A stretch of DNA of 46,213 bases. Origin: an uncultured Methanosarcinales archaeon. GTDB taxonomy: Archaea; Nanobdellota; Nanobdellia; Woesearchaeales; JAGVZT01. Both the position numbers and the translations under genes were made by a program. This document shows positions 1,746-15,719 of the stretch, one piece after another. The notes beneath the pieces were generated by a model. It saw only the letters and a list, made by a program, of their open reading frames with translations. It was not told where the DNA came from and did not search any database. The stretch is from assembly GCA_964419615.1 (NCBI GenBank), contig CAYQPU010000009.1, forward strand, positions 1 to 46,213, in the 5' to 3' direction. Each line of letters begins with the position of its first letter. Within the stretch, counting starts at the first letter, position 1.

Positions 1746-2417
1746 TTATTCTTTTATCCAAATTTCTTTATACTCCATATTAGGATCATGTAGTTTGAAT
1801 CCATGTTCTTTAAAGAATATATCAAGATCATAATGAGTAGGATCACTAAGAATATGGATTGTCGGGCTTTCTTTAGGTGTTATTCTAAATAGTTCACGTC
1901 CAATGAATCTGTAATAATCTTTATTATAGTTCATTAGCAGTTTGGTATCAAGAAATCCACAGCTTATGATAATTGCTGAGTTGTCTGGTTGGGTTAAGAG
2001 AAATTCTAGTGCATCTTGATGAATTACCTCAACACTTCCTTGGAGTCCTGCTAGAATAGCTTTTGTCTCTTTTGGTTTATATAATTCAGGTGCAACATAT
2101 TCTTTTATTCCTAAGTCAAATAAAGTTTTTGCGAGTGGTTTAGAACCAGGTCCTAATTCAATAACTCTTTTTCCTCGTAGAGAATTTGTTATAAATTCAG
2201 TATATCTTGTGTATGTGGACGGACCATTTTCTAAGTAATCCATAAAATGTTTGCTAAAATTATTATCTACCTCAGCATCTCCCTGGAATATTTCTCTGCT
2301 TCGGTATAATCTTCCAGCTAGTAAAATACTTTTTTTTCTGTGTGTATCAATTGATTCAAGTTCATCCTGATTTAGAGATTTGCCAGCAAAAAAATCAGTT
2401 AGTAAAGATTTGTCCAT
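1746..2417 (-). CDS. Class I SAM-dependent methyltransferase-like protein
   Basis: Motif I-like RVIELGPGS, acidic residue after the second strand (EYVAPE), IHQDALEFL; ATG at 2417 preferred over TTG at 2423. Confidence 0.55.
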   Translation of the reverse strand: MDKSLLTDFFAGKSLNQDELESIDTHRKKSILLAGRLYRSREIFQGDAEVDNNFSKHFMDYLENGPSTYTRYTEFITNSLRGKRVIELGPGSKPLAKTLFDLGIKEYVAPELYKPKETKAILAGLQGSVEVIHQDALEFLLTQPDNSAIIISCGFLDTKLLMNYNKDYYRFIGRELFRITPKESPTIHILSDPTHYDLDIFFKEHGFKLHDPNMEYKEIWIKE

Positions 2418-2480
2418 ACCCAAAGGGAATCTTGATTGGCTTAAAAAACTTGGTTAAAAATTAAAAGAAAAAAACAAAAT

Positions 2481-5400
2481 CTAAATTGGTTTACCCCAAA
2501 TAAAGATTGATCCATCTGTGAATTCTCCATTACATGGTTCTGGTTTTATTAAACGAACGGTCATTGTTATGTCATCACCAGGACTCATTAATGAGTTTGC
2601 ATCAATTATTAGTTCTCTTTGAGTTGGGTTTGAAGTTTCATATGGTATTGAGTCATATCCTTCTGCATCTGCATCAATATTTGTGAATGTTGAATGAACT
2701 CCTTTTACTGCATAATAGCAGAAATTATCACTATCACATCCTTCTTGACCTTCTCCCTCATTATCATTGTTTAGCCTCATTACATTTGAGGTTGGACATT
2801 TGGCTCCTGATGAAGCTGGATCATAAAAGTCGCTTCCAGATATAGTCATGTTAAGAATGACACCACCTTCTGCAAGGTTTGTTATGTAGATTGTATCATA
2901 TGCTGTGTGTCCTGGAAGCACGCTTCCAAAGTTTACATCTCCTTCAATGTCTATGTTTATTTCTGGGTTTAAGAACCAATTTTCTCTTATTGTTGAACCC
3001 CCTCTTAATCCATCAAGGTCTACTGCCTGCCATTGCAGCCAGTGTTCCCCATACATTGAGTTTTCAACTGTGAATGTACATGTGTACCAGGTCATGGTGT
3101 CAGGATTAAATACTGTTAAGTCTTCTTCTCCTTCTTTCATTCCCGGGATCATGTCTGTTCTTCCTAGATCAATGTCACAGTTAGCTTCAATGCAAATATC
3201 CATTGTGCCTTCTGCCGGCATTGCTGCAACAAATACATCATAGATTTTTTCTGGCATTCCATTTTTATCCCAGACAATTATGTCATAAGATAGTTTTTCA
3301 CCTTCAAATGCATAATTATGAGCTCTCTCATCAGCATTATAACCGAGCCATGGGCTTGAGTAGATTGTTCTTGAGCTTGTGTTGATAAATATTCTTGGTG
3401 CAAATTTCCAACCATCGTCTGGGTCGTGTCCGTCAACTAAGCATTCAAAGCATCCTTCATCTACTTCTCCGTCACAGTCATTATCCAGACCATCACAGAT
3501 TTCTTCTTCTTCATAGATTGCTCCAATGCATTGATCCCATTCATCCCATTCACAGCTTCCAGTACAGCCTCTTATTCTGGTTCCGTATTCACATTCTCCT
3601 TCATCTGTTGCTGGACCACAGAATAGATCAATATCAAAGTTTCCTTCTTCACAATCTGCATTACATAGGCCTGCAACACAATAACTGTTTGTGTCTGGTT
3701 CTGAACAGTCAGTTGAGCAGTCTGTACAGCCACAATCTGTATCACATGTATTATCGCATGAGTCTGCAACAATTGTACTGTCCTGGATTTTATCAGAGTC
3801 GTACTCAACTAATTTCTTATCTTCACAATAATCATTATAGGTTTCTGAGCATGTGTTTTCTACGCAATCTGTGTCTTCACCACACTCTGCGCCACATTCT
3901 CCCTCCACACATTCATAGTTAAATGGATCTGGTTCACAAACACAGTCTGTTACACAGTCTCCATAGGAATCTCTTGTTCCAAGTTTTGTTCCTAAACATT
4001 CTTCTGATACTTGGTCACATTGGGTGCTGTCTGAGGTGAGTGGATCACATTCTTCGCCAGGATCTAATACATTATTATCACAGCCTGGAACATATTCATA
4101 TTCACAGCCACAACTGTCTATATTACATGTGTCAATTGTGTTCGGATCTAAATCATCACAATCCAAATCTACTTTACATTCTGCTCCACACACGCCTGCA
4201 ACACAATAACTGTTTGTGCTTGGCTCTGAACAATCTGTTGAGCAGTCTGTACACCCACAATCTGTATCTGTATCACATGTGTTATCACATTGATCTTCAA
4301 CTAATGTGCTGTCCAAGATTTCATCTGAATCATATTCTACTAGTTTTGTATCATCACAATAGTCATTATAGGTTTCTGAGCAGGTGTTTTCTGTGCAATC
4401 TGTGTCTTCATCACACTCTGCACCACATTCGCCTTCAACACATTCATAGTTAAATGGATCTGGTTCACAAACACAGTCTGTTACACAGTCTCCATAAGAG
4501 TCTCTTGTTCCTAATTTTGTTCCCAAACATTCTTCTGATACTTGATCGCATTGGGTGCTATCTGATGTTAATGGATCACATTCTTCGCCAGGATCTAGTA
4601 CATTATTATCACAACCTGGAACATATTCATTTTCACAACCACAATCTGCATTACAGGTGTCAATTGTGTTTGGATCTTGGTCATCACAATCATCATCTGA
4701 GTCGCATTCTGCGCCACATGATCCTTCTAAGCATTGATAATCAAATGGATCTTCTTCACAGACACAATCTGTTACACAGTCTCCATAAGAATCTCTTGAA
4801 CCTGTTTTTGTTCCAAGGCATTCTGATGCTGATTGATCACAATAAGTGCTGTCTGAGGCAAGTGGATCGCATTCTTCACCAGGTCCTAGTTCACCATCAC
4901 CGCAATGGCCGATGTCTTCATACTCACAACCACAGCTGTCTAAATTACAAGTGTCTATTGTGTAAACAAATCCATCATCACAATCATCATCGGAGTCACA
5001 TTCTGCGCCACATTCTCCCTCTACACAATATGGATCTCTGGAAGGTGGTTCACATAATGGACCACAATCTGTACATCCACAGTCATTATCACATATGTTT
5101 AAGCATGATCCTACTACTGTTAGAGTGTCTTGTTGTAAGTTTCCATTATAGTCATATAATTTAGTACCATTAACACAATAATCATCATAATCTTCTCTAC
5201 ATGTATTCATATCACAATCATCAAATGTATCACACTCTGCTCCACATTCTCCTTGTACACATTCATAGTTAAAAGGATCTTCTTCACAGACACAGCCTGA
5301 GTCGCAATCACCATAGCTGTCTCTTGTTCCAAACTTTGTTCCTTGGCAGTCTTGAGTGGATTGACCACAAAAAGTACTATCTGATGCCAATGGATCACAT

Positions 5401-8255
5401 TCTTCACCAGGGTCTAGAATGTTATTGTTACAATCTGGTTGATATTCATTTTCACAACCACATGTGTCTAGATTACAGGTATCAATTGTGTTTGGGTCAA
5501 GATCATCACAATCTGAGTCAGTTTCACATTCTGCTTGACATTCTAAATCACAATACGTGTTTGTTTCTGGGACTGAACAGTCTGGATCACAGTCTGTACA
5601 GTCACATCCACCATCACATGTGTTATCACATGAGTCATCAACAGTTGTGCTGTCTAATGTGTGATCATCATCATATTCTACTAATTTATCACCATCACAA
5701 TAATCATTATAGGTTTCTGAGCAATCGTTTGGATCACAATCATCATTTGAATCACATTCTGCGCCACATGAGCCTTCTAAACATTGATAGTCAAATGGAT
5801 CAAAGTCACATAGGCATGAGTCTGTGCAGTCACCATACAAGTCTCGAGAACCTGTTAGTTGACCTACACAATCTGATGTGGATTGATCACAATATGTACT
5901 GTTTAACTGTTCTGGATCACATTCTTCGCCTGGGTCTAGCTCCTCATTTCCACATAATTCTGCTGGTTGACATTGCATATCGCAGCCATCTGTTCCAGGT
6001 ACTTTTTCATCACAAAATGAATGAGATGTACAACCAGGGAATTGATCTTCACAATTATCATCTTGTAGTTGACAGTTTTGATCACAATAGTCTTGCAAGA
6101 AATCTTCTCCATAATCACATGAAGCATGTACTACATTTGGTGGTTCACATTCTTCTCCGGGATCAATGTGTCCATCTCCACAATATGGTTGTGGATCGTT
6201 TTCACAACCACAGTCTACATTACAAGTATCTATGGTGTTTGGATCTTGATCATCACAATCAGAATCTTCATCACACTCTGCTCCACATGAGCCTTCTAAA
6301 CATTGATAATCAAATGGATCATCTAAACATTCACATACATCATTACAATCTCCATATGAATCTCTGGAGCCTGTTTTATATCCAAGACAATCTGAGGTTG
6401 TTTGATCACAGTAAGTGCTGTTTGTTTGTTCTGGGTCACATTCTTCACCAGGGTTTAGTTCTCCATCCCCACACACATCATCATATTCACAAATACATTC
6501 ATTACAAGTTCCAAAATCTCCACAATCAGAATCTGTTTCACATTCTGCGCCACATTCGGTGTCACAGTAAGAATCTAGTTCTGGTGCTTCACATCCAACT
6601 TCACAATCTGTACATGTACAGTCTCCATCACATGTATTTAGACATTTTTCTTTTATTGTGGTTGAACCTAGGATGTGGTCACCATCATATTCATATAAGT
6701 ATAAACCATCACAATAATCAGTATAAGTTTCTTCACAAGATTCATCTTCACAGTCCCCTGCTGAGTCACACTCTGCCCCACATTCACCTTCTACACATTG
6801 GTAAGTAAATGGGTCGTCAATACAAGAGCAACCTGAGTCACATAGACCAAATGAGTCTCTTACTCCTAGTTTGTATCCATAACAATCTTCGGTTGATTGA
6901 TCACAAGATAATGAGTCCTGACCTGGCGGGTCACATTCTTCGCCTGGATCTATTTCTTGATTACCACAATAAGGATCATATTCATTTTCACAACTGCAAT
7001 CTGAATTACATGTGTCTAATGTGGTTGGATCTGAGTCATCACAATCTGAGTCTTGATCACATTCTGCTCCACAATAACTTTCCACACATTGATAATCAAA
7101 TGGGTCTGGATCACATAAGCATTCATCTGTACAATCTCCATAATCATCTCTTGATCCAAACATAAATCCTAAGCAATCATCAGTTGATTGATCACAATAA
7201 GTACTGTTTAATTCTTCTGGATCACATTCTTCGCCTGGATCTAGTACCTCGTTCCCACATACAGGGTTATATTCATTTTCACAACCACAATCTGAATTAC
7301 ATGTATCTATTGTGTTTGGGTCCTGATCATCACAGTCTGAGTCTGTCTCACATTCTGCTCCGCAACTGTCCTTTACACATTGATAGTTGAAGGGATCATT
7401 TTCACATTCACAAATATCATTACAATCTCCAAGTGCATCTCTGGAACCTGTTTTTGTTCCCAGGCAATCTGATGTGGATTGATCACAGTATGAGCTGTCT
7501 GTTTCTTCTGGATCACATTCTTCGCTTGGATCTAGAATACCATCACCACATTCTGGATCAATATCTTCATAAACATATTTATGTTGCCAAAAGCTGCTTT
7601 CACATAAGCATTCATTGTCCATTTTTGTCCAAACTGAGAAATTGTATTCTCCAACTTGGGTTGGTGTGTATACAAAAGAAACATCAATTGTTTGTGAGAA
7701 AGGTATGTCCACTTGAATGTGGTCTGTTTGTTGATCATTTACATAAAAGTATACATCAACTGTGGAAACATAATAAGGGTCTAGTAAATTCGGTACTTCC
7801 ACACTATTAGTTGAAATATTATGAGACGCAAGAATTCTTGCTTTAACTGTGACTGGTTGGTTTAATTCTAATTGAGAAGGTTGAAGTTTAACCCATTGAA
7901 CTCTTGCTGCGCAATCAACTGCTTTGTCAAAATCTATATTAAAATCCCATGGTCCAAAACCTGTTACTTCTGATGTATCGATTATGTTGATGTTTGGAAA
8001 GTAGCAACCTTTGTAGGTGTATTGCGCATGATATATCATTCCAGGGTCTTGTTCTGGTATTTGGTATTGATTAGGGTTGCCATAAACATCTGCGATCTGA
8101 CTTGTTAATGTGGAACAAGTAATATCTGTACACTTATATACAGTTGTGTGGAAATCTCCATCTGGAGATGTAAGTCTTATGGCAACAGGATATGCTGCTA
8201 CAAACAAGGATAATAATATTAATGTAAATAAAAGTATGAATATTTTCTTCTTCAT
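2481..8255 (-). CDS. Giant (1924 aa) secreted Cys/Asp-rich surface protein: head + Ig-like domain, about 10 CG(D/N)xxLDPGEECD units, CDGLDNDCDG metal-binding motif, C-terminal domain paralogous to 8382-9485 and 13191-14279
   Basis: Signal peptide MKKKIFILLFTLILLSLFVAA from ATG 8255 (SD GGGGGG); repeats and C-terminal motifs (NYAFEGE, DKNG, GAKCPTSN, PEPCNGEFTDGSIFIWGKPI) are visible in the translation. Confidence 0.93.
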   Translation of the reverse strand: MKKKIFILLFTLILLSLFVAAYPVAIRLTSPDGDFHTTVYKCTDITCSTLTSQIADVYGNPNQYQIPEQDPGMIYHAQYTYKGCYFPNINIIDTSEVTGFGPWDFNIDFDKAVDCAARVQWVKLQPSQLELNQPVTVKARILASHNISTNSVEVPNLLDPYYVSTVDVYFYVNDQQTDHIQVDIPFSQTIDVSFVYTPTQVGEYNFSVWTKMDNECLCESSFWQHKYVYEDIDPECGDGILDPSEECDPEETDSSYCDQSTSDCLGTKTGSRDALGDCNDICECENDPFNYQCVKDSCGAECETDSDCDDQDPNTIDTCNSDCGCENEYNPVCGNEVLDPGEECDPEELNSTYCDQSTDDCLGFMFGSRDDYGDCTDECLCDPDPFDYQCVESYCGAECDQDSDCDDSDPTTLDTCNSDCSCENEYDPYCGNQEIDPGEECDPPGQDSLSCDQSTEDCYGYKLGVRDSFGLCDSGCSCIDDPFTYQCVEGECGAECDSAGDCEDESCEETYTDYCDGLYLYEYDGDHILGSTTIKEKCLNTCDGDCTCTDCEVGCEAPELDSYCDTECGAECETDSDCGDFGTCNECICEYDDVCGDGELNPGEECDPEQTNSTYCDQTTSDCLGYKTGSRDSYGDCNDVCECLDDPFDYQCLEGSCGAECDEDSDCDDQDPNTIDTCNVDCGCENDPQPYCGDGHIDPGEECEPPNVVHASCDYGEDFLQDYCDQNCQLQDDNCEDQFPGCTSHSFCDEKVPGTDGCDMQCQPAELCGNEELDPGEECDPEQLNSTYCDQSTSDCVGQLTGSRDLYGDCTDSCLCDFDPFDYQCLEGSCGAECDSNDDCDPNDCSETYNDYCDGDKLVEYDDDHTLDSTTVDDSCDNTCDGGCDCTDCDPDCSVPETNTYCDLECQAECETDSDCDDLDPNTIDTCNLDTCGCENEYQPDCNNNILDPGEECDPLASDSTFCGQSTQDCQGTKFGTRDSYGDCDSGCVCEEDPFNYECVQGECGAECDTFDDCDMNTCREDYDDYCVNGTKLYDYNGNLQQDTLTVVGSCLNICDNDCGCTDCGPLCEPPSRDPYCVEGECGAECDSDDDCDDGFVYTIDTCNLDSCGCEYEDIGHCGDGELGPGEECDPLASDSTYCDQSASECLGTKTGSRDSYGDCVTDCVCEEDPFDYQCLEGSCGAECDSDDDCDDQDPNTIDTCNADCGCENEYVPGCDNNVLDPGEECDPLTSDSTQCDQVSEECLGTKLGTRDSYGDCVTDCVCEPDPFNYECVEGECGAECDEDTDCTENTCSETYNDYCDDTKLVEYDSDEILDSTLVEDQCDNTCDTDTDCGCTDCSTDCSEPSTNSYCVAGVCGAECKVDLDCDDLDPNTIDTCNIDSCGCEYEYVPGCDNNVLDPGEECDPLTSDSTQCDQVSEECLGTKLGTRDSYGDCVTDCVCEPDPFNYECVEGECGAECGEDTDCVENTCSETYNDYCEDKKLVEYDSDKIQDSTIVADSCDNTCDTDCGCTDCSTDCSEPDTNSYCVAGLCNADCEEGNFDIDLFCGPATDEGECEYGTRIRGCTGSCEWDEWDQCIGAIYEEEEICDGLDNDCDGEVDEGCFECLVDGHDPDDGWKFAPRIFINTSSRTIYSSPWLGYNADERAHNYAFEGEKLSYDIIVWDKNGMPEKIYDVFVAAMPAEGTMDICIEANCDIDLGRTDMIPGMKEGEEDLTVFNPDTMTWYTCTFTVENSMYGEHWLQWQAVDLDGLRGGSTIRENWFLNPEINIDIEGDVNFGSVLPGHTAYDTIYITNLAEGGVILNMTISGSDFYDPASSGAKCPTSNVMRLNNDNEGEGQEGCDSDNFCYYAVKGVHSTFTNIDADAEGYDSIPYETSNPTQRELIIDANSLMSPGDDITMTVRLIKPEPCNGEFTDGSIFIWGKPI
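3650..7550 (-). repeat. Intragenic tandem Cys-rich repeat array: 9 full units + 1 variant, joined by short and long linker modules
   Basis: Unit C-x5-DPGEECDP..S..CDQ...C.G.K.G.RD..GDC..C.C..DPF.Y.C....CGAEC; short linker D.DC.D.DP.T.DTCN.C.CE.EY; long linker with Y.DYC...L.EY...T....C.NTCD occurs 5 times; last two blocks repeat with a 531-nt period (3910 vs 4441). Confidence 0.92.
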
Positions 8256-8302
8256 AGTTTCCCCCCACAACAACTACAACTATTCTTGAGTAGTACTACC
8301 AA

Positions 8303-8321
8303 TATATAAACATTATTGTGG
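8303..8321 (-). promoter_or_regulatory. TATA box and upstream CCACAAT box of the giant surface gene
   Basis: Minus strand CCACAATAATG-TTTATATA about 48 nt upstream of the ATG. Confidence 0.55.
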
Positions 8322-8331
8322 TCAAATACCG

Positions 8332-8366
8332 AAAAAAAGAAAGAAAAATGTCACCAACCAGGTTGG
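8332..8366 (-). terminator. Hairpin + oligo-U terminator of the 8382-9485 gene
   Basis: CCAACC-A-GGTTGG (8354-8366) followed on the minus strand by T-rich tracts, just after the stop codon. Confidence 0.55.
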
Positions 8367-8381
8367 GACGAAATTATTGAT

Positions 8382-9485
8382 TTATATTGTTTCTGCCCAA
8401 AAATAAAAGTTTCCGTCAGTAAAGTCTCCACTACATGGCTCAGGAAGTTCTAACCTGAAGGTTATTGCCATTTCTGAACCTGGGCTTAAGATGTTGCCTG
8501 ACCAGTACCAACCATTAGGTCCTGTAAGTGGCAAATCTTGGATTATTTCAGCATCATCGTATAGATTTGTGCTAAATGATGTTCCATATTCAATGTTAAC
8601 ATAGCCTTCATCATCAACATCTCTAACAACTGCTGATCCAACTCTGTCTGTCTCCTGGTCATCTTTTGTTGAGTATGCACCATTAACTGCATAATACCTA
8701 AAATGATCCAGTGTTAGTTGGTTTGTACTTGGACACTTTGCACCAGAGGGATTTGGGTCTGTGAAATCTGAGCCTGTTATGAACATATCAAGCATCACGC
8801 CTGATCCAGATTCAGCTCCATTTCCAAGCAGAATTGTTTGGTCTGAGTATGATGTTGTTCCAGGTCTTACTGTTCCAAAACTGATTTCTCCTGTTAGCTC
8901 TATTGCAACTGTTGGATTTAGGAACCAATACTCATTCTCATCTAATGATGCTGATTGGTTATCTGAATCTACTACGTTTACAGTTATCCATCTTTGTCCA
9001 TGCATTGATGCTGCAGATTCTACTGTTAATCTACATGTGTAGTAATCCATCATGTCTGCATCCCAAGAAACCTGCTCTTCATCTATCCGTGCATTACAGG
9101 TATTTAACACTGTAGTGAAGGTTGTGTTTAGTGTACATGTGGTTTCTTTATCTATTCCATTACCTTGTGTTGTTCCTACTGACACATATACTTCATTAAT
9201 TGTTTCTTTACCGTTTTTGTCCATGGCTAAAACCAGCCATTCTATTTGTTCTCCTTCAAATGCATAGTTGTTTTCCCTTTCGGTCATGTTTTCTCCTGCA
9301 CCTGTTTGCCTTCCAGGAGTACTTGCATCATCAAGCACAACCCTGTGATCACAAAACCAGATCAAAGGTTCAAAATCTTCTGTAGCAACAGTAAAGTTAC
9401 CCAAACCTAAGCTCTGGCCAGTTGTGTCTGCAGTTACAACTGCAGCCAGCAAACAGATAAGGAGAATTAATCCTAGTTTTTTCAT
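8382..9485 (-). CDS. Secreted protein of an unnamed family (putative filament/S-layer subunit, paralog 2, 367 aa)
   Basis: ATG 9485 with SD GGGGTGA; signal peptide MKKLGLILLICLLAAVVTA; collinear with 13191-14279 (FEPLIW.CD.RVVLDD, NYAFEGEQI.W.VL.MDKNG, FGTVRPGT, GSGVM.DMFITG.DFTDP, GAKCP.TNQL, LSPG.EM..TFRL.LPEPC.GDFTDG..FW.E); sequons NFT, NMT, NTT, NQS. Confidence 0.9.
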   Translation of the reverse strand: MKKLGLILLICLLAAVVTADTTGQSLGLGNFTVATEDFEPLIWFCDHRVVLDDASTPGRQTGAGENMTERENNYAFEGEQIEWLVLAMDKNGKETINEVYVSVGTTQGNGIDKETTCTLNTTFTTVLNTCNARIDEEQVSWDADMMDYYTCRLTVESAASMHGQRWITVNVVDSDNQSASLDENEYWFLNPTVAIELTGEISFGTVRPGTTSYSDQTILLGNGAESGSGVMLDMFITGSDFTDPNPSGAKCPSTNQLTLDHFRYYAVNGAYSTKDDQETDRVGSAVVRDVDDEGYVNIEYGTSFSTNLYDDAEIIQDLPLTGPNGWYWSGNILSPGSEMAITFRLELPEPCSGDFTDGNFYFWAETI

Positions 9486-9701
9486 TAAGATATCACCCCT
9501 TTTTTTGACCAACTAAGGTAGAGTATGTTAGGTGATATTAATTAGTTGAGAAAGGTTTTTAAGAGGATTTTATTGTGATGGGTTGTTGACGAATTAGATT
9601 TGACTAAGAGTGGTAGTTAATTCTTGATTATTTCTTTACTCCGAAATAAACTGGTAAATTTGTCAGCTATACATATTAAATATTGAAAACCTCAGTTAGG
9701 T

Positions 9702-10118
9702 ATGACAAAAAGATACCTTATTGATACTTCAATATGGATTGATCTTAGGGAGGATAGAAAAGGTTACAATGGTGAACCCCTTGGAGAATATGCAATTAAA
9801 TTTCTTTTGAAAGTAAGACTGGAAAAGTCTAGAATTATTGTCACAGACCATTTGTATGAAGAACTAGGATCATTGTATAATCTCTCAGAAATTAGAAGTA
9901 TTTTTCCAATATTCCAAGATATTTTGGTTAAAGTTATTGTGAGTGAAAACCAAAAACAAGAAGCTGAAATAGAAGCAAAAGAGAGGAATGTTCCAAAGGG
10001 AGATGTACTGTTTGCTATTGTTGCAAGGGATAATGAATTAATATTGGTCACAAGGGACAATCACTTTAAAAAACTGAAAGATATATCAAAATATTATAAG
10101 CCAGAACAGCTTATCTGA
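9702..10118 (+). CDS. PIN-domain ribonuclease (VapC-like toxin)
   Basis: YLIDTSIWIDL, GDVLFAIVARDNELILVTRDNHF: PIN acidic active-site motifs. Confidence 0.9.
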   Translation: MTKRYLIDTSIWIDLREDRKGYNGEPLGEYAIKFLLKVRLEKSRIIVTDHLYEELGSLYNLSEIRSIFPIFQDILVKVIVSENQKQEAEIEAKERNVPKGDVLFAIVARDNELILVTRDNHFKKLKDISKYYKPEQLI

Positions 10119-10359
10119 GCTTTTCAAATACTTCTTCTCGAATTTTTTCCAATTCTTCATCAGTAGTTTGCCTGTTTGATGAACCTCTTAATTTTGCAAT
10201 TTGTACCATGGCCTCTTTTATTTTTACTTCTTCTACCTTTTCTCTCAATGCGCTTCTAATAAATTCAGTTCTGCTGTGATATTTTTTTTGTTTTACTATA
10301 CTGTCTATTTCTTTTAGAAATTTATCTTCAAGTTTGAACATGATTGCTTCTGTTGTCAT
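10111..10359 (-). CDS. Ribbon-helix-helix (CopG-like) antitoxin/regulator
   Basis: MTTEAIMFKLEDKFLKEIDSIVKQKKYHSRTEFIRSALREK; ATG 10359 lies 24 nt from the TATA box (leaderless). Confidence 0.85.
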   Translation of the reverse strand: MTTEAIMFKLEDKFLKEIDSIVKQKKYHSRTEFIRSALREKVEEVKIKEAMVQIAKLRGSSNRQTTDEELEKIREEVFEKLR

Positions 10360-10364
10360 ATGTA

Positions 10365-10390
10365 CATTGTATGTACAATGCATATATAAA
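10365..10390 (-). promoter_or_regulatory. Palindromic operator + TATA of the RHH gene
   Basis: CATTGTA-TG-TACAATG (10365-10380) between TTTATATA (10383-10390, minus) and the start codon. Confidence 0.7.
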
Positions 10391-10407
10391 TGTTTTTGTA
10401 GATGTTT

Positions 10408-10514
10408 CGGAAGATTAGTATATTTACTTTAGCAGAGCTTCCAGCAGGCATGTTCCTCGTGAAGAATTTAACTTATGTTTGATCTTAGCTTATGAGCTTT
10501 CTAGAACTTCCAGG
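10408..10514. repeat. Direct repeat copy 1 (~107 bp), containing a duplicate of the last codons (EVLESS*) of the 11404-12693 gene
   Basis: Core 10448-10511 matches 11362-11425 at 63/64 nt. Confidence 0.95.
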
Positions 10515-10630
10515 TTGTTTGATGTAACAAAAATGTTTATTTAAAACAGTTACTTCATCATATGTTAGATTATTTATAAAGAAGAAAAAACAAAATTATA
10601 AAAAGAAACGAGTTATACTATGAATCTTAT

Positions 10631-10900
10631 ATGAAAGCACAAAACAAAGGGCTTAGTTCCACCAAAGAATGTTATTTTTGTGGAGGAAAGCTTGTTGAGA
10701 AAGCAGAATTAATAATTGTAAATAAAAATTCCATAGTTTCCAAAGTGAAAAAATGTACTAAATGCAGTGAAGGAGTAGTCACACCACAAGAATATGAAAA
10801 AGTTAGGAAAGATATACATCCAGGTTTACTTACAAAGATTAAGAGGCTTTTCAAGCCAAAGATAGAATTTGTTGATTTATTTGATGGAAGACTTTTGTGA
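10631..10900 (+). CDS. YgiT/MqsA-type zinc-ribbon protein (candidate antitoxin)
   Basis: CYFCGGKL ... KKCTKCSEGVVTPQEYEK: two CxxC pairs; TATA TTTATAAA upstream. Confidence 0.75.
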   Translation: MKAQNKGLSSTKECYFCGGKLVEKAELIIVNKNSIVSKVKKCTKCSEGVVTPQEYEKVRKDIHPGLLTKIKRLFKPKIEFVDLFDGRLL

Positions 10901-11275
10901 GTAGATTCTGCCAATTCTGCTTCCTTTATTAAGAGGAGATACATGAATTATTAATAACTTCTTTTTGACAAGGATTCCAATAATAATCAATTTGGGATAT
11001 TTGTAGAGATTTTTCAATTTTTGTCTGATTTTATGAATGCAGTATATTCGTTTATGGCGCGGTTTGATTTCTGCGTATGATCTTTTAGAGAGTTTTCCTA
11101 AGGGGAATAATTCTTTTCCTAAGAAATATGTGCCTTTAAGCATCCATTCAACTATCATTTTTTGGTCCCAGTTGTAACCTTGTTTTATCATATCAATGAT
11201 GGAGTGCTGAGTAAACTCATATTTTCCTTGTTTTAATAATAGAATTATGTGATCTCTCTTTTTATTGTCTATCAT
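10877..11275 (-). CDS. DUF4258-like (RelE/BrnT-fold) candidate toxin
   Basis: YEFTQHSIIDM and LLIIHVSP resemble the DUF4258 FTxHA..M and C-terminal strand; neighbour is a YgiT zinc ribbon. Confidence 0.5.
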   Translation of the reverse strand: MIDNKKRDHIILLLKQGKYEFTQHSIIDMIKQGYNWDQKMIVEWMLKGTYFLGKELFPLGKLSKRSYAEIKPRHKRIYCIHKIRQKLKNLYKYPKLIIIGILVKKKLLIIHVSPLNKGSRIGRIYSQKSSIK

Positions 11276-11322
11276 TAATTAGGCATAGATTACAGGATTT
11301 AAAACATTTAGCTGAGATTCAC

Positions 11323-11428
11323 CGGAAGATTAGTTTATTATTTTAGCAGAAGTTCCACCAAGCATGTTCCTCGTGAAGAATTTAACTTATGTTTGATCTT
11401 GGCTTATGAGCTTTCTAGAACTTCCTGG
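11323..11428. repeat. Direct repeat copy 2 (~106 bp), overlapping the stop codon of the 11404-12693 gene
   Basis: CGGAAGATTAGT...GCATGTTCCTCGTGAAGAATTTAACTTATGTTTGATCTT(G/A)GCTTATGAGCTTTCTAGAACTTCC. Confidence 0.95.
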
Positions 11429-12693
11429 CCATTTGTTGAGTATGGTGTTTGTGGAGTTGAATCAAGAGGTATTGTACATGTTCCTGGTTTGTAGATGTAA
11501 TTAGGTGATCTTGCAATTATTATTTGTTTTTCAGCAGGTACACCAAATTTGTTAACTTTGTATCCTTGTGGTGTTTGAACTATTGTGTCTGGAGTTCTTG
11601 ATCTGTATGTTTTGTAGTATGTGTAGTACTTATAGCATTCTAGTGATCCATCTCCATCGTAATCTACTGCTATTTCTACATTGCTTCTTGAATAGTCTCC
11701 GTTTGAGTTTGTTCTAAATACTACTGTTTCTTGTGATGCTTGCTGCTGTACACATTGGTAATTGTCACATGTGTATCCGGTGTTACAATTAGTATCTTCT
11801 GTGCATGCTACTTCTGTGCATTGTGTGTTTAGGCATCTGTATCCTGATGAGCAGTCATTGTCTGTTGAGCATTGTGTTTGGACACATTTGTTGTCCTCGC
11901 ATTCATAGTTTACTCCGCACTGGTCATCTGATGTGCATTCATAACTTACACATTGTCCTTCAACACAATTGCTTTCACAGTCTTGGACTTGAGTTATTGT
12001 GTCATCATAAAAGCAGTTGGTATTACAGTAGTAATCTCTGTAGACTTGATAAACATCCCCACTGTCACAGTATTTTGTGCCTATGAATCCATCTGTGCCA
12101 CAGTCTTCATCTAAGTTACATTCTGATTCTGATGAACCACATATTGATGTTGCTTCACATAGGTTGTTAAATGATGAGAATGATAGCCAGGATTTTATCT
12201 GGGCTAAGTCTGATTGTATTGAATCTAAGGTTGCCTGGACTGCGTCTTTCCAAGCTTTTAGTATTGATATGTCTGAATCTGCTGATGTTTTCCATGCTTC
12301 TAGTGCTGCTAATCTTGCTTCTATTTCTGGATCTGTTGTTTGAGGTTCTTGTTCTGGTTCATCATCAATACCATCACATGCATCCCCTATCCCATCTTGG
12401 TTTAGATCTTCTTGGAGTCTGTTCCAATGGTTAGGACAGCTGTCTTGATCATCAAGTATTCCATCAAAGTCTTGATCATTGTCTGCGTTTCTTGTGCATT
12501 GCTCTTCAGTACAGTATGCCCATCTTGTTGAATAACCTGAATCTGTTAAACATAGTGTACAGCTTTCAGCAGGACATGTGTAAGTGTTATCTCTTAATGT
12601 ATCACCTTTACTCATACATGCCCAATAATATGCATTTACTGAGAAAGATAATAGGAAGAAAACAATGATTGGAATCAAGATCTTTTTTTTCAT
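11404..12693 (-). CDS. Secreted protein: Cys-rich N-domain, TSP3 repeat, coiled coil, Cys-rich C-x4-DC repeats, Tyr-rich C-terminal domain
   Basis: Signal peptide MKKKILIPIIVFFLLSFSVNA; DQDFDGILDDQDSCPNHWNRLQEDLNQDGIGDACD; LAALEAWK..ISILKAWK heptads; ECTSDDQC/QCSTDNDC/ACTEDTNC repeats. Confidence 0.9.
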   Translation of the reverse strand: MKKKILIPIIVFFLLSFSVNAYYWACMSKGDTLRDNTYTCPAESCTLCLTDSGYSTRWAYCTEEQCTRNADNDQDFDGILDDQDSCPNHWNRLQEDLNQDGIGDACDGIDDEPEQEPQTTDPEIEARLAALEAWKTSADSDISILKAWKDAVQATLDSIQSDLAQIKSWLSFSSFNNLCEATSICGSSESECNLDEDCGTDGFIGTKYCDSGDVYQVYRDYYCNTNCFYDDTITQVQDCESNCVEGQCVSYECTSDDQCGVNYECEDNKCVQTQCSTDNDCSSGYRCLNTQCTEVACTEDTNCNTGYTCDNYQCVQQQASQETVVFRTNSNGDYSRSNVEIAVDYDGDGSLECYKYYTYYKTYRSRTPDTIVQTPQGYKVNKFGVPAEKQIIIARSPNYIYKPGTCTIPLDSTPQTPYSTNGQEVLESS

Positions 12694-12748
12694 TTTGTTT
12701 TTTTTGATTTCATAGGTTTCAGAGTAAAACCTTGCAATAATAAATTGA

Positions 12749-12900
12749 TGATTAGGATCACAGGTCCTAAAGCAAAACCCTGTGCTCCTCGATTTAGTAA
12801 ACTCGTGATTGGGATCACAGGTCTCTACGGTGTTGGTCTGGGGTGGAGAACAGTTTACAGCAGGCTGTAAGTAAAAAGCTCTCTAGCAGAGACCTGTGAT
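12749..12900. repeat. Nested direct and inverted repeats (two tandem hairpins opened by ATCACAGG)
   Basis: Direct repeat TGATT(A/G)GGATCACAGGTC at 12749-12766 and 12806-12823; perfect 13-bp IR 12814-12826 / 12888-12900; CACAGG/CCTGTG 12759-12764 / 12779-12784; inner TTACAG/CTGTAA. Confidence 0.8.
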
Positions 12901-12979
12901 TAATGAATATGATTTTTTTGACATAGAATCTTTTAGTTCTACCTCATTTTTTGTTGGTCTTATTTTGTTTTTTCTGGTT

Positions 12980-13011
12980 TGTCAAAAACCACATTTTATG
13001 ATTTTTTGACA
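12980..13011. promoter_or_regulatory. Operator-like palindrome TGTCAAAAA-N14-TTTTTGACA
   Basis: Perfect 9-bp IR; a third half-site TTTTTGACA at 12915-12923. Confidence 0.5.
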
Positions 13012-13158
13012 TTTTGTTAAGCAATCTTCAACACCAATTAGTGCTTGATATTCAAAATCCAGCTTGCAACAGGTATGTTTTTGAACACACAAAACCCCAA
13101 GTGAATTTTGGTTTGTTCTTGCCTTGCCATTTATCTAAGATAAGTGGGCTTTTGTTGT

Positions 13159-13178
13159 AAAAAAAAAAAAATAAAAAA
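13159..13178 (-). terminator. Oligo(dT) terminator of the 13191-14279 gene
   Basis: Minus strand T6-A-T13 starting about 12 nt after the stop codon. Confidence 0.75.
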
Positions 13179-13190
13179 TTTAATTCGTCC

Positions 13191-14279
13191 TTAGACAGCT
13201 TCTCCCCAGAAGAAAATGCTTCCATCTGTGAAGTCCCCATTACATGGCTCTGGCAACATTAGTCTAAAGGTTACTGACATTTCTGCTCCAGGAGATAAAA
13301 CATTTCCTGAGTAGTATCCTTGAACATCTGCTGCTGGTGCCTGTAATACTTCAGCGTCAGCGTACAAAGCTGTACTGAAATAGTCACCATATTCAATGTT
13401 CATGTAGTCTTCTGCATCTTGTGCTCTTACTACACCAACAGTGTTGGTCAATGCATCAGTTGCTGAACTGTATGCTCCACTTGTTGCATGGTACCTTAAG
13501 TTGCTTAAGGATAACTGGTTAGTTGTAGGACACTTTGCACCGGAGTGTGCAGGATCTGTAAAATCAGTTCCTGTGATGAACATATCCATCATTACACCGG
13601 ATCCAGGTGTTGCTCCATTACCAACAGTGATTGTTGGTGAATAAGCTGCGGTACCAGGTCTAACTGTTCCAAAGCTCAGTGAACCTGATAAAGTTACTGC
13701 TACAACTGGGTTTAAGTACCAGTATTCATTCTCGTCTGCTGATGCCAACTGACCATCTAGGTCTTCTACATTTGATGTTATCCAGAATTCACCTAACATT
13801 GAAGTTGGGCTTTCAACTGTTAACAAACAAGTGTAGTAAGCCATTGTGTTTCCATCAAATACTGTTAACTCTTCTTCGCCAATTCTTGCATTACATGATG
13901 CATTGATTTCGGCATGAGTTACTGTTGAAAGGTCACAATTTGCTTCAATCTCTGAACCATTTGCTTGAGTTCCACCAACAGTTACAAAAACATCTTTGAT
14001 TTTTTCAACTCCGTTTTTGTCCATTACAAGAACTTCCCACCCAATTTGCTCTCCTTCAAAAGCATAATTGTGGTCTCTCTCTACAAGAGATGCTCCTCCC
14101 GCAGATGTTCTTCCTGATTCTACGTGGTCATCCAATACAACTCTACTATCACATTGCCAGATTAAAGGCTCAAAGTCTTCAGTCTCGATTGTGATTCCCA
14201 AGCTACTTCCTGTGTCTATTGCTAATGCCATTGGCAAAACAAGTGCCATTGCCATTAAAATTGCTAATAGCTTTTTCAT
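13191..14279 (-). CDS. Secreted protein of an unnamed family (putative major filament/S-layer subunit, paralog 1, 362 aa)
   Basis: ATG 14279 with strong SD AGGAGG; signal peptide MKKLLAILMAMALVLPMALA; mature N-terminus IDTGSSLGITIETEDFEP; ends FFWGEAV; no TM anchor. Confidence 0.92.
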   Translation of the reverse strand: MKKLLAILMAMALVLPMALAIDTGSSLGITIETEDFEPLIWQCDSRVVLDDHVESGRTSAGGASLVERDHNYAFEGEQIGWEVLVMDKNGVEKIKDVFVTVGGTQANGSEIEANCDLSTVTHAEINASCNARIGEEELTVFDGNTMAYYTCLLTVESPTSMLGEFWITSNVEDLDGQLASADENEYWYLNPVVAVTLSGSLSFGTVRPGTAAYSPTITVGNGATPGSGVMMDMFITGTDFTDPAHSGAKCPTTNQLSLSNLRYHATSGAYSSATDALTNTVGVVRAQDAEDYMNIEYGDYFSTALYADAEVLQAPAADVQGYYSGNVLSPGAEMSVTFRLMLPEPCNGDFTDGSIFFWGEAV

Positions 14280-14312
14280 TTTTCTTTTCCTCCTTCTAAT
14301 TGTTTGTTTATT

Positions 14313-14766: not shown

Positions 14767-15192
14767 CTAAAAATCAACCAAAATTATCTCTGCTTTCTCT
14801 ACAAACCTTTTTGCAAAAGATAAACTCTGTATTGCATCTTGTTTTGAAACAGGTGCAGCAGTATAAACTGAGTTATTTCTCAGTTTCCTTAGTCTGTCAA
14901 ACTCCCAGACTTCCAAAGAAAACTCGGAAGAATAATATTCATTAATAAAACTGACAGTGGCCTTATGAGAATATGGTTTGAATCCATTCAAAGACATTAG
15001 AGATTGGGCAGATTCCCTTACAGATTCATAAGAATCTTCTAAAACAAAAGGTGCTGTTTTGCTATTAATCTCTTTAATAGAAATATACTCAAGCCTTTGT
15101 TTTGATCTATTTAAAAGAGATCTTGCCTCTTTTGGATCAGGAGTATTTTTCCTGACTTTTCCCTGTTCAATAAAAACTTTGAAAGGTATCAT
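14767..15192 (-). CDS. HEPN-domain protein (HEPN/MNT module)
   Basis: YESVRESAQSLM..GFKPYSH, RKLRNNSVY; start overlaps the stop of the upstream MNT gene. Confidence 0.85.
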   Translation of the reverse strand: MIPFKVFIEQGKVRKNTPDPKEARSLLNRSKQRLEYISIKEINSKTAPFVLEDSYESVRESAQSLMSLNGFKPYSHKATVSFINEYYSSEFSLEVWEFDRLRKLRNNSVYTAAPVSKQDAIQSLSFAKRFVEKAEIILVDF

Positions 15193-15719
15193 TTAATATC
15201 AATATAGCCGTAAAGCACAATTCCATTTGCAACTGCATTCTGAAATTCTGCTGAGCTTTTTTCTAAAGATACCTCATGCAGGTTAATTGTCCTATTTAAC
15301 TTCTTCTCGTACTTAACCAAAAACTTTCCGGCTTTAACAAAACCAATAATAAGAATATCAATATCACTTTTTTTTATATCTTCTCCCCTTGATGCTGAAC
15401 CAAAGAGAACAATTGCTTTAGGATTATTTTCAGACAACTCTTCAACAAGACCTTTAAGTTGATGTAGATTGTATAATCGCTTGTAATAATTATAAGAAGA
15501 GGATCCAAGATCAGCTTTGATATTGGTTGTTAGTTTTGTCTTCTCAACCTCAATAATCTTGTTTTTATGAAGAATATCTACAGCTTTGACTATTGCTGTG
15601 GTCGATAGACCTGCTTTTCTTTCAAGCCTTCTAATGTAAAATACATCAGTAGGATTGTTAAATATAATCTGTGCAACCTTGTATGTTGAATCAGTAAAAC
15701 TGTTTTTTCCATATAGCAT
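15189..15719 (-). CDS. wHTH + minimal nucleotidyltransferase (MNT antitoxin)
   Basis: FYIRRLERKAGLSTTAI helix-turn-helix; IVLFGSASRGEDIKKSDIDILII (GS..G..DxD). Confidence 0.9.
   Translation of the reverse strand: MLYGKNSFTDSTYKVAQIIFNNPTDVFYIRRLERKAGLSTTAIVKAVDILHKNKIIEVEKTKLTTNIKADLGSSSYNYYKRLYNLHQLKGLVEELSENNPKAIVLFGSASRGEDIKKSDIDILIIGFVKAGKFLVKYEKKLNRTINLHEVSLEKSSAEFQNAVANGIVLYGYIDIK

Follow-up and report, generated by a model that had tools for sequence, protein, structure and literature searches.

The module of about 320 residues described here, which makes up two secreted stand-alone proteins and the C-terminus of a giant Cys-rich protein, is tentatively read, at a little less than an even chance, as the building block of a thin surface fibre, accessory and specific to DPANN archaea, in which subunits would be joined head to tail by β-strand complementation. 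This reading is considered the best since in its anatomy the module agrees with two kinds of donor-strand pilus, Elr/WxL and Pam. Such a fibre, or else a scaffold, would display sticky or enzymatic cargo. The two-sandwich subunit family has no solved or named relative.

The window is the stretch of 46,213 nucleotides of contig CAYQPU010000009.1 (assembly GCA_964419615.1, an uncultured, tiny DPANN archaeon of symbiont type) that was analysed; genes A and B, the giant, the two 'YWxC' genes and all parts thereof lie on its minus strand. An earlier note on this DNA had claimed three copies of the module, at coordinates that proved right: all three were found again, and according to a whole-genome search they are the only ones in the 1.48-Mb genome. 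Gene A (13191..14279; identified by translation, sequence comparison and whole-genome search) encodes a stand-alone module of 362 aa. It consists of a signal peptide (residues 1-20, 14220-14279), an N-terminal strand delimited by conservation (residues 21-38, 14166-14219) and two domains taken from the AF2 model, D1 (residues ~39-192, 13704-14165) and D2 (residues ~193-362, 13194-13703). The Shine-Dalgarno sequence AGGAGG that had been reported was read directly at 14289..14294, 9 nt upstream of the ATG. Directly 3' of the stop codon a T6-A-T13 run was likewise read (13159..13178); the run is present as claimed and is likely an archaeal oligo-T terminator. Gene B (8382..9485) encodes a second stand-alone module of 367 aa with a signal peptide, the same N-terminal strand and four N-glycosylation sequons; it is 57% identical to gene A over the full length (E 7e-144).

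The giant (2481..8255) has 1924 aa and a signal peptide. Its N-terminal domain of ~215 aa (7557..8201) shares 51% identity with the start of a 923-aa protein at 20381-23152 and 42% with that of a 3050-aa giant of related genome G004, and yielded a weak, sub-threshold CARDB match in the family search. A stalk of Cys/Asp-rich repeats follows (3408..7556; 14.6% Cys) that holds 201 of the 214 cysteines of the protein, in agreement with its earlier description as Cys-rich. The C-terminal module (residues 1617-1924, 2484..3407) corresponds to family profile positions 38-361 and lacks both the Gly-rich N-terminal strand and the pair Cys43/Cys129; gene A is 41% identical to the last ~290 residues of the giant (E 5e-59). 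The motifs NYAFEGE, DKNG, W.LNP, FG.V.PG, GAKCP and PEPC.G.FTDG, listed earlier as shared, can be read in the translated genes, and no columns of the family are better conserved. None of the three proteins has a TM anchor, as had been claimed, since a Kyte-Doolittle scan of A, B and the giant identified the N-terminal signal peptides as the sole hydrophobic segments.

The genes of the window are interspersed with toxin-antitoxin genes and do not form an operon, which counts against the fibre. Directly downstream of gene A lies the gene of a 429-aa secreted Cys-rich protein (11404..12693), the N-terminal 'YWxC' knob of which marks a family; in most related loci examined a module gene is followed, co-directionally, by a member of this family. 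A second member, with Big_7 and TSP_3, is found downstream of the giant and is cut by the contig end (3..1604). In genomes G003 and G004 the homologues of this second protein are followed by the gene of a PapD-like membrane protein.

The mature N-terminus of the free subunits is amphipathic, with consensus V.VG.G[IV]G[IV]D[I].TE.F.P among 180 stand-alone members. G24 (85%), G26 (77%), T33 (74%), E34 (81%), F36 (79%) and P38 (94%) are conserved, and positions 27 and 31 are aliphatic in over 90%. In the monomer model of gene A residues 21-38 have no β pairing and residues 21-30 have a pLDDT of 71. Of the earlier claim that the free copies begin with a β-like strand missing from the giant, conservation and absence from the giant stand; the term 'β-like' rests on the sequence pattern, since the AlphaFold monomer gives the segment no β structure. 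Cys43 and Cys129 are both present or both absent in 176 of 179 sequences, a co-variation which suggests that residues from ~39 onward are tied to D1 in cis and that ~21-35 are left free. Conservation and monomer model together thus place in the free subunits what a donor-strand fibre calls for, a conserved amphipathic strand outside the folded core.

The AF2 model of gene A (pLDDT 91.8) consists of two β-sandwiches with 9 and 7 strands. Judged by strand assignments, both sandwiches appear complete, with no evident missing strand, a point against the fibre. Homodimer prediction with two copies of mature A scored 0.00 in both runs, which were made without controls and carry no weight either way. 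Among solved structures every match to the module has Z 8.3 or lower and is generic. The best solved neighbour of D2 is TLP-1b (PDB 9IKK; Z 8.0, rmsd 3.5, 147 of ~170 residues aligned); D2 also matches the PapD-like domain of CEP192 (Z 7.3) and the pilin domain of CfaE (Z 6.0, 116 residues aligned). The likeness to TLP-1b and CfaE falls within the ordinary range and is weak evidence for a fibre. A possible relation to TasA, AbpA or CanA found no support: Pfam, PDB profile search and the structural matches listed gave neither a sequence link nor a clear fold link, and TasA, AbpA, CanA, Sulfolobus threads and S-layer folds are absent among the 50 matches listed. Neither phmmer nor a profile search of PDB sequences with the module gave anything usable, and nothing in its sequence ties the module to WxL, TasA or a solved chain, which speaks against the fibre; the named clusters of a language-model atlas yielded no match either.

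Neighbours of D1 include carbohydrate-binding modules and glycosidase N-domains at Z 7-8, and some fusions carry glycoside hydrolases or lyase-like β-helices. Both would fit a protein, soluble or only loosely attached, that binds glycans or other ligands without self-assembly and the binding domain of which is reused in fusions. We regard this as improbable: the D1 Z-scores are generic, a binding domain needs neither a strict C-terminal place nor a conserved N-terminal strand, and evolution in concert with the resident free copies, described below, is not expected of it. The glycoside hydrolase cargo also counts against the fibre, being unusual for pilus tips.

The earlier view of the module as an unnamed family that occurs both alone and in fusions was borne out. 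No Pfam family matches A, B or the giant module at E up to 1, the WxL and DUF916 models included, and NCBIfam holds no family for the module; NF012200 gave 16.1 bits (E 0.012) on giant residues 1773-1829, below its curated cut-off of 45. The likeness of D2 to the choice-of-anchor D / ASH / PapD-like β-sandwich is at fold level only. The family is large, falling into more than 1070 clusters when grouped at 90% identity and 355 when grouped at 50%, and is conserved at 55-60% across orders. A census of the 298 relatives in hand gave 180 stand-alone proteins, 48 N-terminal fusions, 23 loop-insertion forms, which keep signal peptide and strand and bear their inserts within loops of D1, along with 6 tandem arrays. 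In nearly all 298 the end of the protein is the end of the module. To a tandem-module protein all stand-alone homologues align at the second unit only. Cargo types include DUF4215, DUF11, β-helix/NosD, LTD, TSP3, laminin-G, GH88 and GH127. In most module-positive genomes surveyed the cargo-free form alone was found.

Cargo joined to a subunit domain that lacks a donor strand, as would be expected of a tip adhesin, is found in the giant and in 37 of the 48 N-terminal fusions, which start at profile position 25 or later; the other 11 start at 24 or earlier and retain the entire strand. Most N-terminal fusions retain its second half (TPNITIE.F.P), which, like the 11 that retain all of it, weighs against the fibre. 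The capping role proposed earlier for the giant would agree with its lack of residues 21-35, but does not extend to all decorated forms, given the 11 strand-keeping fusions and the 23 relatives with loop cargo.

On the fibre reading, the products of genes A and B would be secreted by the Sec pathway and processed, after which the conserved amphipathic strand of each free subunit would bind the subunit before it. The constrained assembly core would be formed by D2 together with the C-terminus, which is always free, with D1 facing outward and tolerating cargo. N-terminal fusions without the first half of the strand could only accept and would therefore sit at the distal end, where the giant would place its disulfide-rich stalk of ~1400 residues and its N-terminal domain; strand-keeping relatives with D1-loop cargo may take an internal position. 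A PapD-like protein anchored in the membrane, as encoded in related genomes, would probably prime or tether the subunits.

The latter protein, found to accompany the module in related genomes, may add support to the fibre proposed earlier. Strong matches occur in 26 of 401 high-quality genomes of the phylum, and 23 of these 26 encode the module, which overall occurs in 31 of the 401; in twelve cases the gene lies on the same contig, at most 20 kb from the module. Its domain matches CEP192 ASH (Z 13.6), MSP (13.2), the Enterococcus faecium WxLIP (9i1y; 13.0), FimC and SafB (12.4) and, at Z 10-12, YadV, EcpB, FaeE, CfaA, CsuC and PapD, with only a sub-threshold Ig_CFAP65 match in Pfam. The protein has a single such domain, compared with two in classical chaperones, besides an extended low-complexity stalk and a TM helix at its C-terminus. 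No copy of it was detected in the present assembly, where the window begins at a contig end; candidates for the missing cluster end elsewhere in the assembly were only paralogous C-terminal domains of other giants and were rejected. When the PapD-like family was compared with the module by profile, the signal peptides alone aligned. In three genomes without the module, genes of a different large surface family flank the PapD-like gene, which may therefore serve that family; this, the single domain and the lack of a match here count against the fibre.

A membrane-anchored partner would also suit display without polymerisation, with the module as a C-terminal docking unit that sits one-to-one on a membrane receptor, for instance the PapD-like protein, by β-strand augmentation. 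The invariably C-terminal position of the module, its diverse cargo, enzymes included, the complete appearance of the monomer model and the co-occurrence with a TM-anchored domain related to MSP/VAP and chaperones, which bind peptides through an added strand, all speak for such docking. We nevertheless hold it to be unlikely: since most module-positive genomes have the cargo-free form alone, that form would be without obvious purpose, and the conserved free N-terminal strand, the strand-preserving loop insertions and the tandem arrays are left unexplained.

The distribution of the module, 31 of the 401 genomes, is patchy, which fits an accessory system. The module was not found in G001, a genome of the same genus (99% complete), where the syntenic region lacks the island. 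In G003, G004 and G264 stand-alone and fused copies share islands, a co-occurrence for which the earlier note had suggested a search, and there the fused modules cluster with the free copy of their own genome (support 98-100%, in a module tree with unresolved backbone), which fits a need for compatibility between the two.

This distribution weakens the S-layer, previously named as the main alternative, in which free modules would form a two-dimensional lattice on a membrane stalk protein, as in SlaA/SlaB, with decorated subunits interspersed. Archaeal S-layer proteins are typically tandem β-sandwiches, gene A has a strong ribosome-binding site and a likely terminator, the PapD-like partner could offer the stalk and membrane helix, and the atlas neighbours of the module include CARDB/DUF11 and a 'COG1361 S-layer family' cluster, though only at TM 0.36-0.42. 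A main envelope protein would however be found throughout the lineage, unlike the module, and the conservation across orders is unlike that of fast-evolving S-layer proteins; we know of no PapD-like S-layer anchor. An S-layer role is thus unlikely, and we give it a rather small probability.

Returning to the fibre, the closest parallel is the Elr/WxL pilus of Enterococcus faecalis, with its WxL tip adhesins that carry modular cargo (10.64898/2026.10.17.759780). Shared with the module system are small secreted subunits, each with an amphipathic strand conserved at its N-terminus (10.64898/2026.10.17.759780), large proteins with variable N-terminal cargo (β-helix, Ig spacers) that end in the subunit module, the almost always most C-terminal place of that module, tipless as well as internally decorated variants, and a membrane-anchored PapD-like helper, the archaeal one being that with the WxLIP match. 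The module system differs in being archaeal, in lacking a WxL or DUF916 sequence match and an LPxTG or sortase base, in having two sandwiches without an evident missing strand in the monomer model, and in that no helper turned up in this genome. The Pam pilus, reported to be exclusive to CPR bacteria (PMC13278184), resembles it, going by the description, in belonging to ultra-small organisms of episymbiont type, in a subunit with a nine-strand N-terminal sandwich and, after it, an Ig-like C-terminal domain with paired cysteines, and in TM-anchored chaperone-like proteins without a trans-envelope machine; in Pam, however, the inter-domain linker is the donor and the chaperones have two domains.

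Chaperone-usher tip adhesins such as FimH and CfaE likewise join cargo to a terminal pilin-type domain without its own donor strand, but differ from the giant in orientation, size and envelope; no usher is present here, and the similarity of CfaE to D2 is in the generic range. To our knowledge giant fused adhesins are not known in the AbpA, Tafi/TafA and CanA systems. AbpA, Tafi/TafA and the CanA cannulae (PMC9245690, PMC12337348, PMC12518558) form fibres by strand donation without chaperones; they are, like the module, archaeal and Sec- or Tat-secreted and, as is proposed for it, joined via an N-terminal strand, whereas the module has no TasA-like sequence signature and none of them is among the top structural matches listed. 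In pond fibrils TLP-1a/b (PMC11494351, PDB 9IKK) act as donor-strand subunits and bear an N-terminal strand, but they come from bacteria (Flavobacteriales-like), consist of one domain and donate n+4, and the Z-score of TLP-1b to D2 is tied with unrelated folds. The CryoSeek pond glycofibrils (preprint), also considered, are eukaryote-linked and unrelated to the module.

A further step, which we regard as possible yet doubtful, would be to see here the first chaperone-assisted donor-strand pilus of Archaea, a DPANN-wide accessory fibre of two-sandwich subunits, primed or tethered by the PapD-like protein, with interchangeable giant adhesins or enzymes that hold hosts or substrates, in parallel to Elr in Bacillota and Pam in CPR. 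The subunits are small and Sec-dependent, so that the fibre claim can be tested by recombinant expression. The module family is abundant in metagenomes and highly conserved and has been without any annotation. Little is known of the genes by which DPANN archaea attach themselves to a host or a surface. If true, strand donation with a PapD-like helper would place this assembly logic in Archaea beside Gram-negative, Gram-positive and CPR bacteria, and archaeal fibres would also be known to carry modular tips.

Translation of the window reproduced three module genes on the minus strand at the coordinates of the earlier note: gene A (13191-14279, 362 aa) and gene B (8382-9485, 367 aa), each a stand-alone module, and the giant (2481-8255, 1924 aa), which carries the module at its C-terminus (2484-3407; residues 1617-1924 by the family profile). 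That one domain occurs three times is confirmed: a full-length alignment of A with B shows 57% identity (E 7e-144), A is 41% identical to the final ~290 residues of the giant (E 5e-59), and a whole-genome search of the assembly (1.48 Mb, 64 contigs, 99% complete) found exactly three copies and no fourth. As had also been claimed, TM anchors are absent, the N-terminal signal peptide being the only hydrophobic segment of each protein, and gene A has a strong Shine-Dalgarno sequence, AGGAGG, 9 nt upstream of its ATG and a T6-A-T13 run directly 3' of its stop codon. The giant contains 214 cysteines, of which 201 are in its central stalk.

No significant family was found for the module proteins in Pfam and NCBIfam, where only CARDB (N-terminal part of the giant) and choice-of-anchor-D (its D2) appeared below threshold, and neither single-sequence nor profile searches matched the module to PDB sequences. 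An AlphaFold2 model (pLDDT 91.8, pTM 0.82; 59 homologues) predicts a nine-strand sandwich D1 (about residues 39-192), an invariant LNP linker and a seven-strand sandwich D2 with long ordered loops (residues 193-362). Foldseek returned tandem-Ig proteins only (TM 0.2-0.3). By VIA-align D1 best matched CBM/FN3-like domains (Z 8.3) and D2 matched TLP-1b (Z 8.0, 147 residues aligned), the CEP192 PapD-like domain (Z 7.3) and the CfaE pilin domain (Z 6.0), all Z-scores within the range the tool rates as ordinary. In the ESM Atlas unnamed Nanobdellota and Aenigmatarchaeota clusters stood alone at the top (TM 0.62-0.73), followed by CARDB/DUF11-type proteins at TM 0.42 or below. That the module is a binding protein that does not assemble seems to us very unlikely, the least probable of the readings weighed here.

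Among the 298 relatives in hand, a biased sample, 180 are stand-alone, 48 have N-terminal fusions, 23 have loop insertions that keep the signal peptide, the N-terminal strand and the first part of D1, six are tandem arrays, and the remainder are fragments or other forms. The loop inserts are 50-920 residues long and lie near profile positions 63 or 110-135; none interrupts D2. Cargo includes DUF4215 Cys-rich repeats, DUF11, beta-helix/NosD, LTD, TSP3, MopE, laminin-G, GH88 and GH127 domains. Since in nearly all relatives the protein ends where the module ends, and D2 is free of inserts, D2 and the C-terminus appear to be the constrained part and D1 the decorated one. Natural tandem arrays (P0124, P0276, P0152, P0125 and P0193), in which some units are D2 only, link their units by ~10 residues and keep the N-terminal strand segment in the second and later units, the first lacking it; in P0124 the second unit is followed by the beginning of a third, where the protein ends. 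A stop-free frame at L009:5-5110 in G004 (P0147, 1701 aa) runs from a TSP3/beta-helix giant into a complete module with N-terminal strand, through a TM-like segment and then another that resembles a signal peptide; this is a genuine fusion, or else the one frame yields two products.

The mature N-terminus of the 180 free members follows the consensus V-[SD]-[VT]-G-x-G-[IV]-G-[IV]-[DN]-I-x-T-E-D-F-x-P, with G24 in 85%, G26 in 77%, aliphatic residues at 27 and 31 in over 90%, E34 in 81% and P38 in 94%. Cys43 and Cys129 co-vary (both in 153, neither in 23, mixed in 3), which suggests a disulfide; this would tie the chain from residue ~39 on to D1, with about 21-35 left free. The earlier note had described a beta-like strand on the free copies that the giant lacks. 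The loss holds, as the whole segment is missing from the giant together with the Cys43/Cys129 pair, but its beta character is not borne out by the monomer model, which has no beta ladder for residues 21-38 (pLDDT 71 over residues 21-30). In 37 of the 48 N-terminal fusions the module starts at profile position 25 or later, and in the common DUF4215 class the cargo abuts 'TPNITIE.F.P', so that the first, Gly-rich half of the strand is gone; the other 11 retain the full strand. Cargo sits either at the N-terminus, the free end of the strand then being lost, or in a loop, with the strand kept, a pattern that would be predicted for a donated strand and is not proof of one. The module may otherwise be a one-to-one docking module, which we consider unlikely.

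Related genomes encode a ~210-240-aa protein with a signal peptide, one Ig-like domain of ~110 residues, a stalk of low complexity and, at the C-terminus, a TM helix and a basic tail. Strong matches occur in 26 of 401 genomes, 23 of them module-positive (22 of 25 without the unpublished G375), and in twelve cases module and partner share a contig, no more than 20 kb apart. In the model (pLDDT 82; >95 in the domain) this domain is clearly PapD-like, with Z 13.6 to the CEP192 ASH domain, 13.2 to MSP, 13.0 to WxLIP of Enterococcus faecium, 12.4 to FimC and SafB, and 10-12 to YadV, EcpB, FaeE, CfaA, CsuC and PapD, although it is a single domain, unlike the two-domain pilus chaperones. A first-strand Arg or Lys is present in 17 of 20 members; in pilus chaperones such residues grip the subunit's C-terminal carboxylate (summarised in 10.64898/2026.10.17.759780), which we infer may parallel the always-free C-terminus of the module. 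The partner was not found in the source assembly, where the window's contig stops ~1 kb short of its position in G003 and G004. In three module-negative genomes its gene lies between genes of the secreted 'DVAY' family, so that it may serve this family too, or instead. At L041, L042 and L043 (G238, G369, G256) the partner is found in the absence of the module, between secreted proteins of 1000-1300 aa that begin 'DVAY...', and the two may form a second, more widespread surface system with the same helper. Elsewhere in the source genome (L049:1480-3029, C34) a signal-anchored protein of 138 aa, its domain weakly PapD-like, neighbours an Ig-rich protein of 377 aa that has a TM helix at its C-terminus; similar small ORFs (about 130-190 aa) gave weak matches in many genomes of the phylum.

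The anatomy of the module family is shared with two pili of cells without an outer membrane, described in recent preprints (10.64898/2026.10.17.759780; PMC13278184), to neither of which the archaeal family belongs by sequence. Elr/WxL subunits of E. faecalis combine an N-terminal donor strand with an incomplete C-terminal WxL fold and are primed by a membrane-anchored PapD-like chaperone; their tip adhesins join variable cargo to an invariant module, C-terminal in 2867 of 2871, and some adhesins occupy internal fibre positions (10.64898/2026.10.17.759780). In Pam pilins of CPR bacteria the N-terminal sandwich has nine strands and the C-terminal domain is Ig-like, and Pam chaperones are TM-anchored (PMC13278184). 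The archaeal strand-donation fibres Abp, Tafi and cannulae are chaperone-free (PMC9245690, PMC12337348, PMC12518558), and no link of the module to them was found. A fibre is the best available reading of the family, though a tentative one; the statistics of the strand, the architecture census and the PapD-like partner all strengthen it.

The window's three module genes have PIN/RHH and HEPN/nucleotidyltransferase pairs between them and are not an operon. Such pairs lie at 9702-10383 and 14767-15719; in G003 and G004, too, a HEPN/nucleotidyltransferase pair is found upstream of the gene for the free module. Usually next after a module gene, close and co-directional (19 loci, 16 genomes), is a gene for a secreted protein with Ig-like (Big_13) domains and, at its N-terminus, a small 'YWxC' cysteine knob; in the window such genes lie at 11404-12693 after gene A and 3-1604 after the giant. 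Farther along there often come, in this order, a beta-helix protein, the ~210-240-aa protein and a ~1000-aa protein that begins 'DVAY'. The 225-aa ORF that separates the giant from the following surface gene (1746-2423, minus strand) has no signal peptide, and neither a Pfam match nor a counterpart in the G003 or G004 islands was found for it. A 923-aa secreted giant without module (20381-23152, minus strand) shares its first ~215 residues with the module-bearing giant at 51% identity, so at least two chassis carry this N-terminal head; the 923-aa giant as such is kept at 66% identity in the same-genus G001, which lacks the island. A ~215-aa domain in the C-terminal part of the G003 homologue of 3-1604 recurs at the C-terminus of four other giants of the source genome (L045-L048 on C19, C33, C1 and C5; 1252-2024 aa). 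Matches to the stalk/TM part of the PapD-like family suggest a C-terminal TM anchor in those of C19 and C33, which would be a mode of attachment unlike that of the module-bearing giant.

The family is large: clustering at 90% identity gives more than 1070 clusters among sequences the size of a stand-alone module, all annotated simply as hypothetical proteins (Woese-, Nano-, Pace- and Aenigmarchaeota), and at 50% identity there are 355 clusters. Its distribution is patchy: the module was found in 9 of 41 close relatives and, across the phylum, in 31 of 401 high-quality genomes, counts that take in the unpublished G006 and G375 (30 of 400 without G375). It was not found in G001 (99% complete), whose syntenic region retains geranylgeranyl reductase, glycosylation genes and a 927-aa homologue of 20381-23152, followed by housekeeping genes. 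Giants are in the minority (G000, G003, G004, G264, G266, G126) and in all six genomes have free copies alongside, which bears out the co-occurrence of stand-alone and fused forms that the earlier note had proposed to check. In G003, G004 and G264 fused modules cluster with their own genome's free copies (support 96-100%), consistent with free and fused copies evolving together; the module of the giant in the window has diverged along a long branch, on a backbone without resolution. Most commonly, a positive genome has one stand-alone gene. An S-layer-like array, the alternative previously raised, is weakened by the patchiness and by the failure to find the module in G001, and we rate it as less likely even than docking. 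Patchy distribution and single stand-alone genes argue for an accessory system, counter to the role of a lineage S-layer.
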